DNA from: Escherichia coli
GTDB taxonomy: Bacteria > Pseudomonadota > Gammaproteobacteria > Enterobacterales > Enterobacteriaceae
Length of the DNA stretch: 64,000 nt
Assembly (NCBI RefSeq): GCF_002854065.1
Contig: NZ_CP024150.1
Reading direction: 5' to 3' (one strand)
Made by a program: the position numbers. Shown here in pieces: positions 46,301 to 49,300 of this stretch. Each line of letters opens with the position of its first letter. Position 1 is the stretch's first letter.

Positions 46301-49300
46301 AGATCCATTTAATTGACGGCGGTGCACTCATGGCACGCAGGCAGTGTTGAATAAACATCCGTTTTGGGGTGTTTTTTTAATCTTTTTGGGATTTAAATTC
46401 CTATCGATTAAATTCCTATCGATGAACCGAAGAGCACGGCGGTGCGGAGTCCGGAGAGTAACGGCATAGCAGAGAGCTTCGTGAAAACGATAAAGCGTGA
46501 CTACATCAGTGTCATGCCCAAACCAGACGGGTTAACGGCAGCAAAGAACCTTGCAGAGGCGTTCGAGCATTATAACGAATGGCATCCGCATAGTGCACTG
46601 GGTTATCGCTCGCCACGGGAATATCTACGGCAGCAAGCCAGTAATGGGTTAAGTGATAACAGGTGTCTGGAAATATAGGGGCAAATCCAGAAGGTATCCC
46701 TTCGGGTTTTTGCTTAATTGTTCCTCCTAAACCGGATGGAGACATTGCAGGATTAGGTTTGTGAGTGGATGCATAGTCATATACTGCACCTCCAGCCCCC
46801 CCCAGCAGCTGCTACAATTCCTCCTGCAACAAATTGCCCGGATAGTGTTCCTATAGCCATCGCAATATCACGCCCTGAAGCACCACCAGAAACAGAATCT
46901 AATTCATTTAGAGTCAGAGTTCTCATATGATCTCCTTTTTATCTTATCGGATATTGAATAATAATTATCACCAACAAAGTAACATATTGCAGACATTAAT
47001 GCAGAGAAGCAAAATGTATGCATGGATAAAAAGTCCTTTCCTCTAAAAACACAATCATATATAGCTAATGCAATATATATTGCGGTGGCATTTATTATAA
47101 ATGCAAATAACAAATCTAATTTTGTTCTTTTTCTATCCATTACTTTCTATCCATTACTTTCTATCCCATTACCACACAAACACTAACGATAATGATTATC
47201 GTTCACATAATCAAGAGTGAAGGGTAGGCGGCCCTCACCCCCCTATAAGGGGTCCGCTTGGAAAACGGATTTTCCCACGTCAAGAGAATTGAGTTGAACG
47301 AGTGGTTACATCCAAGCCTGCTAACTCACTGAACGTAAAGGATGTACGAAATGTTCCTACCGTCCGATAACCATTTGGCTTACTTCCGTACATTCCCTTG
47401 CGTAGATGTTCAGAATTGTACGATTTCGGACACCAAAACCGCTGTTGTCCCGCCATTCTGGCGATTCCTGAAAGTCATTTGACTAAAAAATAGTCTTAAC
47501 GTGGTTTATTTTCCGAATTCCAAGCGCCCCCCCTACATTTATACAATGTCCTGCAGGGCATAGAAGTGGCGAAAGAAAATACCTGGGCGAAGCCGCTGAA
47601 CATCATTCTGGCGATTTCAATAAAGGTACTTGCTCGCGCTCTGTCATTTTCTGAAACTCTTCATGCTGCATTTCGATTTTCCTTCTAAGATCATAACTCG
47701 CATACCTGTTCTTTTTATGTATATCTATTTTTGTGACGAGTTCAAACCACGATGTTCGCACTCCCCATGCAGCGTTATGAAACATTTCCGCAACGGCTAT
47801 AGAGTCTGTATTAACTGCTTCGGTCATGTAGTCGCTAATACGTTCAGCGGTAATTTTCGTTATTTCATCGTAATTCATTTTATCTCCTACAAGATTATTT
47901 AATGGAATGCAAAATATCTGGTCTGATAATAATGTTCCAGAATTAATATCTGCAGGCTATGTTAAGTTGTCCCCACACACAATCTACCTGTTTTCTCGTG
48001 TGTGCCACAGACGCAATACATAAATAGTCTGGCCATTAATTTCGTAACGGATTTCGTACTCGCCAGCAAAAATCCGTCTGATCTCCCTGGGCTCAAACTG
48101 AAACAACTGTTCTCCCATACGTGGATGAGTTAACAGAATGACCGGTGCCTGTGTCAGGGACTGTACCGTTCTGGCGGCAGCAGGTTTACTGGCCAGCACC
48201 AGAAAATCATATAACCGCGCCAAATCAGAAAGCGCCTTACTGGTCCACTTCAGTTCCATCAGCGTGGCACCGGTAACGGATTGTCAGTACTGAGGCTGTC
48301 CGCCCAGGCCTGTACAGCCTGATGATCGATAACCTGTCCGGATGTCACATCGTCCAGGGCTTCCAGCGTCAGGCGATTACGCTCCTCCTCCTGGGCAAGC
48401 CATGCAGAAAGCGCCTGTTTGATAACCCAGCCCCGGGAGCGTTCCAGCTTGGCGGCCATCTGGTCGATTTTATCAGCCATAGGTAATGGCACATGCGCGG
48501 TAATTACTTTTGTTGCTTGTGCACTATTGTTTTTCATTTGCATATCCGATTAGTTGTTAATCATATTTAATCATAGTGATTACTTTCAGACGGAACAAGG
48601 CAAATAATGCGCGTCAGCGCATGTAAGGCGGCACGCTGTGGTTACATGTGATACCGGAGTAAAACCGCCGAAGCCCGGCGTAAGCCGGTACGGATTGATA
48701 GATTTCACCTTACCCATCCCTTGCCCTGCCAGACCATACCCGTTTTCAGCCATGAGAGAGCTTCTGTGCGCGGTCGGAGTGGTCCCGACGAGGGTTTATC
48801 CGAAGTCGGGGCGTATCTCCGCGTTAGCGGGCCGTCAGGGCCGCTTACGAGCGTGTACTCAATACTTCCAGCGAGAAGACTGACAGCGATGACGGGTATA
48901 GTTACAACATTCATAATTAAAAGCGACTCTGTTCCGGCCCTTTGGGCCGGGACGGGGCCGCTTTTCAGTTATGAGGGAGGGGCTTTGTGGTTTCGGTTCT
49001 GCGCTGGACCGGGGTTTTTCCGGAGGTTGTCTTTGTGTGTTGTAACTAAAGTGGCTCCGGTCGGAGCCCGCCGCTTGCGGTGGGAGGTGCATATCTGTCT
49101 GTCCACAGGACAGGCAGTGAATAGGTTTTCTTTTTAAATGAATGTAATTAAGTAGTTTAAAGGAGATATAAACAGGTGTTTAAAGGATATATTGCACCCT
49201 GTAAGACTGGCGGCTGGCGCTTTATGATATGAACGGTTGTAACCTTATGGGGAAGTCCCTTGCAGTTAAATGTGGATAAGCAAAATTCCCCGTCGCTGAG

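Follow-up and report, generated by a model that had tools for sequence, protein, structure and literature searches.

Immunity to colicin V (microcin V, MccV) has been located on a fragment of about 700 bp that carries the immunity gene, cvi (Boyer & Tai 1998 and Gilson et al. 1987, summarised in PMC6795089). According to the same summary, the cvi promoter is situated at a Fur site some 50 bp ahead of the gene, and production of Cvi depends on iron (Boyer & Tai 1998). In the toxin, encoded by cvaC, the Cir-binding domain is formed by mature residues 57-88, equivalent to residues 72-103 of the precursor (PMC12511343). A 2025 survey in Nat Commun reported orphan immunity genes on 243 E. coli plasmids (53 for microcins) and heavily truncated toxin genes, with the same truncation common to distinct plasmids (PMC12546727). 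Here we describe a cvi-cvaC locus on the minus strand of a 64-kb stretch of an E. coli IncF plasmid (NZ_CP024150.1; the window, below, is this whole stretch of 64,000 nucleotides). The locus is very probably an insertion sequence (IS)-eroded remnant of the colicin V gene cluster that adjoins the IncFII replicon. As judged from its sequence, the combination of cvi with a dead cvaC represents the "orphan immunity" state, in which the immunity gene is intact and the replicon holds no functional cognate toxin.

The immunity gene (47140..46904, minus strand) is an intact open reading frame (ORF) that codes for 78 amino acids with two hydrophobic segments. The product is identical to Cvi of pECOS88 at 77 of 78 positions (98.7% over 78/78 residues by tblastn), and alignment showed the DNA to be identical to that of cvi in the complete operon of CP056798. 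Because Cvi has no model in Pfam or NCBIfam, its identification rests on this near-identity to annotated Cvi. The same name (cvi, WP_032257624.1) was given by the Prokaryotic Genome Annotation Pipeline (PGAP) in the record of a sister plasmid, NZ_AP027791.1 (E. coli 2017.06.05CC plasmid 1, IncFIA/IncFII, human faeces, Viet Nam), to which the window is 99.994% identical over positions 1-50000. As in the natural operon, cvi and cvaC overlap by 23 nt (46904-46926).

A Fur box, GTGAACGATAATCATTATC (47206..47188, minus strand), is found 48-66 bp upstream of the cvi ATG. It agrees with the consensus (GATAATGATAATCATTATC) at 16 of 19 positions, has the core palindrome AACGATAAT-C-ATTATCGTT, and is the sole such match in the window, where chance alone would give 0.02. 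Among aligned ColV plasmids the box is invariant except for one flanking position, and its location agrees with the cvi promoter and Fur site described in PMC6795089. The ORF, the alignment and the Fur-box match thus bear out the proposal of an earlier note on this DNA that cvi is intact with a Fur box upstream. By reading the sequence we also recognised a putative cvi promoter that overlaps the Fur box (47186..47214, minus strand), with a -35 element TTGATT (47214..47209), a 17-nt spacer and a -10 element TATCGT (47191..47186). The two elements score 8/12, which falls below the threshold of the consensus promoter scan, and the scan called no promoter at the Fur box. The start of cvi is spanned by three copies of a 14/15-bp tandem repeat (47130..47172, minus strand; Tandem Repeats Finder and alignment). 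The upstream copies duplicate the ATG region but soon run into stops, forming tiny ORFs that read MG-stop and MDRK-stop; the stop of the second overlaps the ATG of cvi (TAATG). Repeat copy number (3 vs 2) and one base vary among plasmids.

In contrast to cvi, cvaC is a pseudogene. It starts at 46926 and extends to 46690 on the minus strand, and these 237 nt represent nt 1-239 of a gene that is 312 nt long when complete. An intact double-glycine leader, MRTLTLNELDSVSGG, is followed by the start of the mature microcin V sequence; over residues 1-32 the product is 100% identical to CvaC (tblastn). The Pfam profile PF17508 (MccV) matches the product with an E value of 1.3e-11, above the gathering score, with only profile positions 1-45 of 104 covered. 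Residues 49-80 are encoded in a second frame, down to 46690, as detected by tblastn in two frames. A run of eight G (46796-46803, minus strand; eight C on the plus strand) marks a 2-base deletion: intact cvaC alleles carry 10 nt at this tract (GGGGGGGTGG, GGGGGTGTGG, GGAGGGGTGG), and the window 8 nt (GGGGGGGG). The lesion is a net loss of two bases that includes a T, not a plain change in homopolymer length. The shifted ORF stops at 46777 and yields a product of 49 amino acids. CvaC of the window lineage also carries the substitution G38V. A further observation concerns the Salmonella Typhimurium plasmid p33673_IncF (NZ_CP012683.1), in which the same tract has independently lost 1 base, cvaA, cvaB and cvi are intact, and the record has no cvaC annotated. 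The G tract is either a mutational hot spot or prone to sequencing error.

The second lesion lies at the 3' end of the gene. Homology to cvaC ends at 46690, that is, at nt 239 in codon 80, and codons 81-103 (23 codons) plus the stop are lost. The missing part includes Cys91 and Cys102 and most of the Cir-binding domain (23 of its 32 receptor-binding residues), and a full-length, 103-residue CvaC frame with that domain is not found at the locus. The sequence that adjoins the break is the last 267 bp of an IS2 element (46423..46689, plus strand), comprising the 3' end of orfB and the right inverted repeat, whose last base is 46689. This repeat, TGGATTTGCCCCTATATTTCCAGACA, occupies 46664-46689 on the reverse complement, and we take it to be the reference right-end sequence of IS2. 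The fragment is 96-98% identical to complete IS2 copies, its ORF at 46442..46678 matches Pfam rve_3, and PGAP annotates it as 'IS3 family transposase, missing N-terminus'. No complete 1331-bp IS2 with both ends is found at the junction; an IS21-family element stands in place of the rest. When the cvaC frame was restored in silico, the result was a CvaC(1-80) fusion running 57 codons into antisense IS2. A terminator-like hairpin at 46690-46703 (plus strand) is at chance level only. Alignment to pColV cvaC-cvi, the check proposed in the earlier note, was run and gave an intact cvi and, in cvaC, the -2 deletion with the truncation. Both lesions that the note had described were confirmed in this way, the frameshift at the eight G as a net 2-base deletion relative to intact alleles, and the loss of the C-terminus to the IS2 fragment as 23 codons plus the stop, where about 20 codons had been estimated. 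In the record of the sister plasmid, AP027791, PGAP already labels cvaC "frameshifted; incomplete; missing C-terminus".

The exporter genes cvaA and cvaB, which the note had given as absent, were not found either. A tblastn search of the window with CvaA and CvaB of pECOS88 returned no significant match (best E value 0.31), and in the remaining 46 kb of AP027791 it returned only generic matches to ATP-binding cassette nucleotide-binding domains, in sugar-transporter and McbF genes. Neither gene is annotated in the window or in AP027791. On the chromosome, mchE and mchF are about 92% identical to cvaA/cvaB at the DNA level, and about 370 chromosomal matches of this kind appeared in a survey of complete RefSeq E. 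coli genomes (see below). Given this frequency, ColV-type exporters would often be available in trans in E. coli hosts, which is relevant to plasmids that have an intact cvaC but no cvaAB (survey end-points 662 and 1020-1516).

At the sequence level, therefore, the plasmid cannot produce or export colicin V, because cvaC is frameshifted, because 23/32 receptor-binding residues and both cysteines are lost, and because cvaAB is absent; each of these alone would suffice. The absence of colicin V production had been proposed in the earlier note, and the frameshift, the IS2 truncation and the missing exporter genes support it. Conversely, immunity to colicin V is probably still expressed, since an uninterrupted ORF, with the same sequence as the complete-operon allele, is kept together with the Fur box and promoter region. 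A defective cvi would be lethal to a producer, and we took identity with the allele of a complete operon as a sign of a functional gene. Under scarce iron, Fur would release the retained cvi promoter, the small inner-membrane protein Cvi would be made, and Cvi would then protect the host from colicin V of other strains.

The likely ancestral arrangement is still present in CP056798 (pRHBSTW-00177_5). This plasmid has the backbone of the window, with repA, a ribbon-helix-helix (RHH)/ParE toxin-antitoxin pair and a small hypothetical gene, and its cvi DNA is identical; unlike in the window, the cvi-cvaC/cvaB-cvaA cluster that follows is complete. The ancestral order would thus have been repA, the RHH/ParE pair, cvi-cvaC and, convergently, cvaB-cvaA. 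We suggest that IS2 inserted into cvaC after nucleotide 239, and that an IS-associated deletion or rearrangement, the exact steps of which are conjectural, then removed the rest of IS2 together with the 3' end of cvaC, cvaB and cvaA. The 2-base deletion in the G-rich tract would additionally have shifted the cvaC frame.

The same cvaC/IS2 junction (46689/46690) occurs in four public plasmids from Asia. AP027791 (Viet Nam, human) has the eight-G tract and no other differences. AP027831 (Viet Nam, human), also with 8 G, lacks one 15-bp unit of the leader repeat and has one synonymous change in cvi. CP112990 (China), again with 8 G, has an extra 15-bp deletion beside the IS2 end. In CP180634 (Thailand, pig) the tract has 7 G, a net loss of three bases that keeps the frame, and PGAP labels cvaC only "incomplete". 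The Cvi protein (WP_032257624.1) is unchanged among the sister plasmids, and both cvaC and the IS edge are still decaying. CP180634 also bears on what the earlier note had offered as a way to overturn its reading, namely sequencing reads with a different G-tract length. This point is now moot: because the IS2 truncation inactivates cvaC regardless of frame, another tract length cannot rescue the gene, and in CP180634 the gene is in frame yet truncated.

How common is this state? We searched PLSDB plasmids and complete RefSeq E. coli genomes with the 4148-bp pECOS88 cluster as the query, and read an evenly spread sample of 60 rows from each ranking. In PLSDB, 697 records had any match and 377 matched at least 80% of the cluster; cvi with cvaC truncated or absent and no cvaAB was seen in about 21 of the 60 sampled rows. 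The corresponding figures for the RefSeq genomes were 1081, 694 and 16 of 60. Roughly one third of the plasmids with any ColV DNA therefore carry cvi and a truncated cvaC without the exporter, as estimated from these samples, and rows that have nothing but the cvaA/cvaB side number only 1-3 per sample. The truncations end recurrently at query positions 502 and 374 in PLSDB, and more rarely at 662, 460, 381, 331 and 320; the RefSeq sample added 348 and 1020. At 502 and 374 the break is an IS1 junction in ColBM-type IncFIB/FIC plasmids, and among the non-intact states of the locus in the survey this IS1-truncated cvi-cvaC remnant is the most frequent. The immunity-only ColV remnant is thus common in IncF plasmids, already annotated and already described, and is neither rare nor new.

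Two alternatives concern the state of cvaC itself. If the frameshift were a sequencing or assembly artefact in the homopolymer, cvaC would be less decayed than it appears, an idea that draws on the nature of the site (a G homopolymer), on the 7 G of CP180634 and on the unrelated Salmonella plasmid (CP012683), 1 base short in the same tract. We consider an artefact improbable and set it aside, since a T was lost as well as a G, so that a simple length miscall does not explain the change, and since three records from Viet Nam and China have the eight-G allele as well as the window; moreover, the truncation makes the matter immaterial, a frame-restored product still lacking codons 81-103 and running into IS2, with cvaAB absent. 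It is even harder to credit, and in our view scarcely conceivable, that the remnant still gives an active or exportable peptide, for example via a host MchEF exporter, and that the locus does more than defend. In favour of this are the intact double-glycine leader, the first 28 mature residues, likewise intact, and the frequency of chromosomal mchEF in E. coli. However, the 49-residue product has no Cir-binding domain and is without the greater part of the toxic N-terminal domain, an in-frame version would still have lost the greater part of the receptor-binding residues and both cysteines (PMC12511343), and tblastn found no exporter on the plasmid, whether in the window or in the other 46 kb of AP027791.

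A third alternative concerns cvi. The "cheater-like" state proposed in the earlier note is plausible, and the sequence data do not separate selection for immunity from passive retention beside the replicon. Possibly, though less likely than not, cvi is neutral debris that one-sided IS erosion has merely not yet reached, shielded by its proximity to the essential IncFII replicon and the ParE pair, in which case it would bring no selected benefit and might be poorly expressed. The gene lies 2.3 kb from repA, deletions come from the accessory side, and one-sided erosion of this kind would yield the same pattern of cvi retention as selection; the plasmid is also rich in IS elements and pseudogenes. 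Several observations weigh against retained, functional immunity. The end-points form a series (2966, 1516, 1020, 662, 541, 502, 460, 381, 374, 348, 331, 320, 149 and 68) of which some destroy cvi: in other lineages only query 1-149 or 1-68 is left, and because such end-points lie inside or beyond cvi, the gene is not always kept. The sister plasmids differ by only about 0.01-0.3%, a divergence at which 237 bp should show fewer than one change, and the conservation of cvi among them carries no statistical weight. Finally, the window lineage has TTGATT as its putative -35 element, a C-to-T substitution relative to TTGACT in the other aligned ColV plasmids, and has also lost 1 nt from the 5' leader repeats; either change could reduce cvi expression. 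On the other hand, most of the distinct end-points crowd into about 340 bp just downstream of cvi and are not spread across the 3.5 kb of cvaB-cvaA, and in the 60-row samples about 16-23 rows keep cvi for every 1-3 that are left with the cvaA side alone (these being counts of records, not of independent events). The excess of cvi-retaining remnants and the crowding of end-points past cvi are a hint of immunity retention, and the maintenance of orphan immunity genes across plasmid clusters has been argued for in a published analysis (PMC12546727). The stronger proposition, that selection steers erosion of the ColV cluster to stop just downstream of cvi and that this plasmid family, in which AP027791 has a second IS2-stripped bacteriocin locus (see below), follows an actively maintained, multi-immunity 'resistant' strategy, we regard as doubtful. 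We retain the reading of the locus as an IS-eroded remnant that would confer immunity only.

The DNA on either side of the locus is as follows. The IS2 fragment is abutted by the IS21-family element (42761..46422, minus strand), in which istA (46066..44840) and istB (43558..42761) are pseudogenes and a complete IS2-like element with IS2-like inverted repeats is nested (43596-44926). An inverted-repeat search for the outer ends of the IS21-family element gave nothing convincing. In AP027831 the nested IS2 occupies another site than in the window, and the nested copies were therefore acquired independently. On the other side, the IncFII replicon is represented by repA (50312..49455, minus strand) and by the CopA antisense RNA of IncFII replication control (50397-50488, plus strand; Rfam RF00042, 85.5 bits), which is expected beside repA. 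CopA was the sole match of an Rfam scan of 45500-51000, and none fell within the cvi-cvaC locus.

Farther along, AP027791 has a 1070-bp ISApl1 insertion in an hha-like gene at the site corresponding to window 51874/51875, where the window has no ISApl1. Beside this site, the window and AP027791 differ at 37 positions in the 12-kb tra region and at 1 position in the other 50 kb, an uneven divergence that points to recombination in the transfer region. AP027791 also carries a microcin B17 operon (89565-93982), some 1 kb past window position 64000, which a complete IS2 interrupts. The element has taken the place of mcbB, mcbC and the 5' part of mcbD, whereas mcbA is still there and the export and immunity genes mcbE, mcbF and mcbG are intact. 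A second bacteriocin locus of AP027791 has in this way been reduced to immunity, again by IS2.

Other genes of the plasmid point to its wider character. At 25995-26372 (plus strand) the window has a pseudogene whose frame holds a single internal stop. It corresponds to a divergent B subunit of the cholera-toxin (CT)/heat-labile-enterotoxin (LT) family, roughly 60% like LT-B/CT-B as judged by eye; at 83486-84768, AP027791 has an 858-nt hypothetical gene followed by an intact copy. The B-subunit gene may belong to a variant LT-like toxin. A type IVb pilus cluster (about 28461-40975) includes a major pilin, a TcpQ-like protein, a secretin, PilO2, a GspE/GspF-type ATPase and platform, a prepilin peptidase and PilV, and the plasmid also has an F-type replicon and traI/traX. 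Together, the pilus cluster, the F-type replicon with traI/traX and the LT-like genes suggest a colonisation plasmid of the enterotoxigenic E. coli type.

On its own the remnant carries little weight, being one more bacteriocin cluster reduced to its immunity gene. Its frequency matters for typing. Because about a third of the plasmids with ColV DNA carry only a stub, gene-presence typing as 'cvi/cvaC positive', as in the virulence polymerase chain reaction panels for avian pathogenic and extraintestinal pathogenic E. coli, overcalls colicin V producers. Immunity-only plasmids would also blunt the probiotic or therapeutic use of microcin V.

Set beside the systems described so far, the locus shares with complete pColV-type clusters (pECOS88, CP056798) the promoter and Fur box, the 23-nt overlap and the first 239 nt of cvaC; it differs from them in that cvaC is frameshifted and cut after codon 80 and that IS2 and IS21-family DNA replaces cvaB/cvaA. 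The IS1-truncated remnants of ColBM-type IncFIB/FIC plasmids (pTB201, CP029243; CP041920) are similar in having cvi and its promoter intact, a 5' stub of cvaC that ends at an IS, and no cvaAB. Unlike the window, however, they are broken by IS1 and not IS2, at cvaC nt ~199 or ~71 and not 239, they have no extra frameshift, and they lie in another context, beside cbi/cma/cmi and iroN. E. coli isolate 0143I, which we liken to the window from its published description, also has a degenerate cvaC and cvi, with no cvaA/cvaB genome-wide, and this was judged non-functional by the authors (Toxins 2019, PMC6723558). Finally, as among the orphan-immunity plasmids of the 2025 survey (PMC12546727), a single toxin truncation is shared here by several plasmids, the window and its four public sisters.

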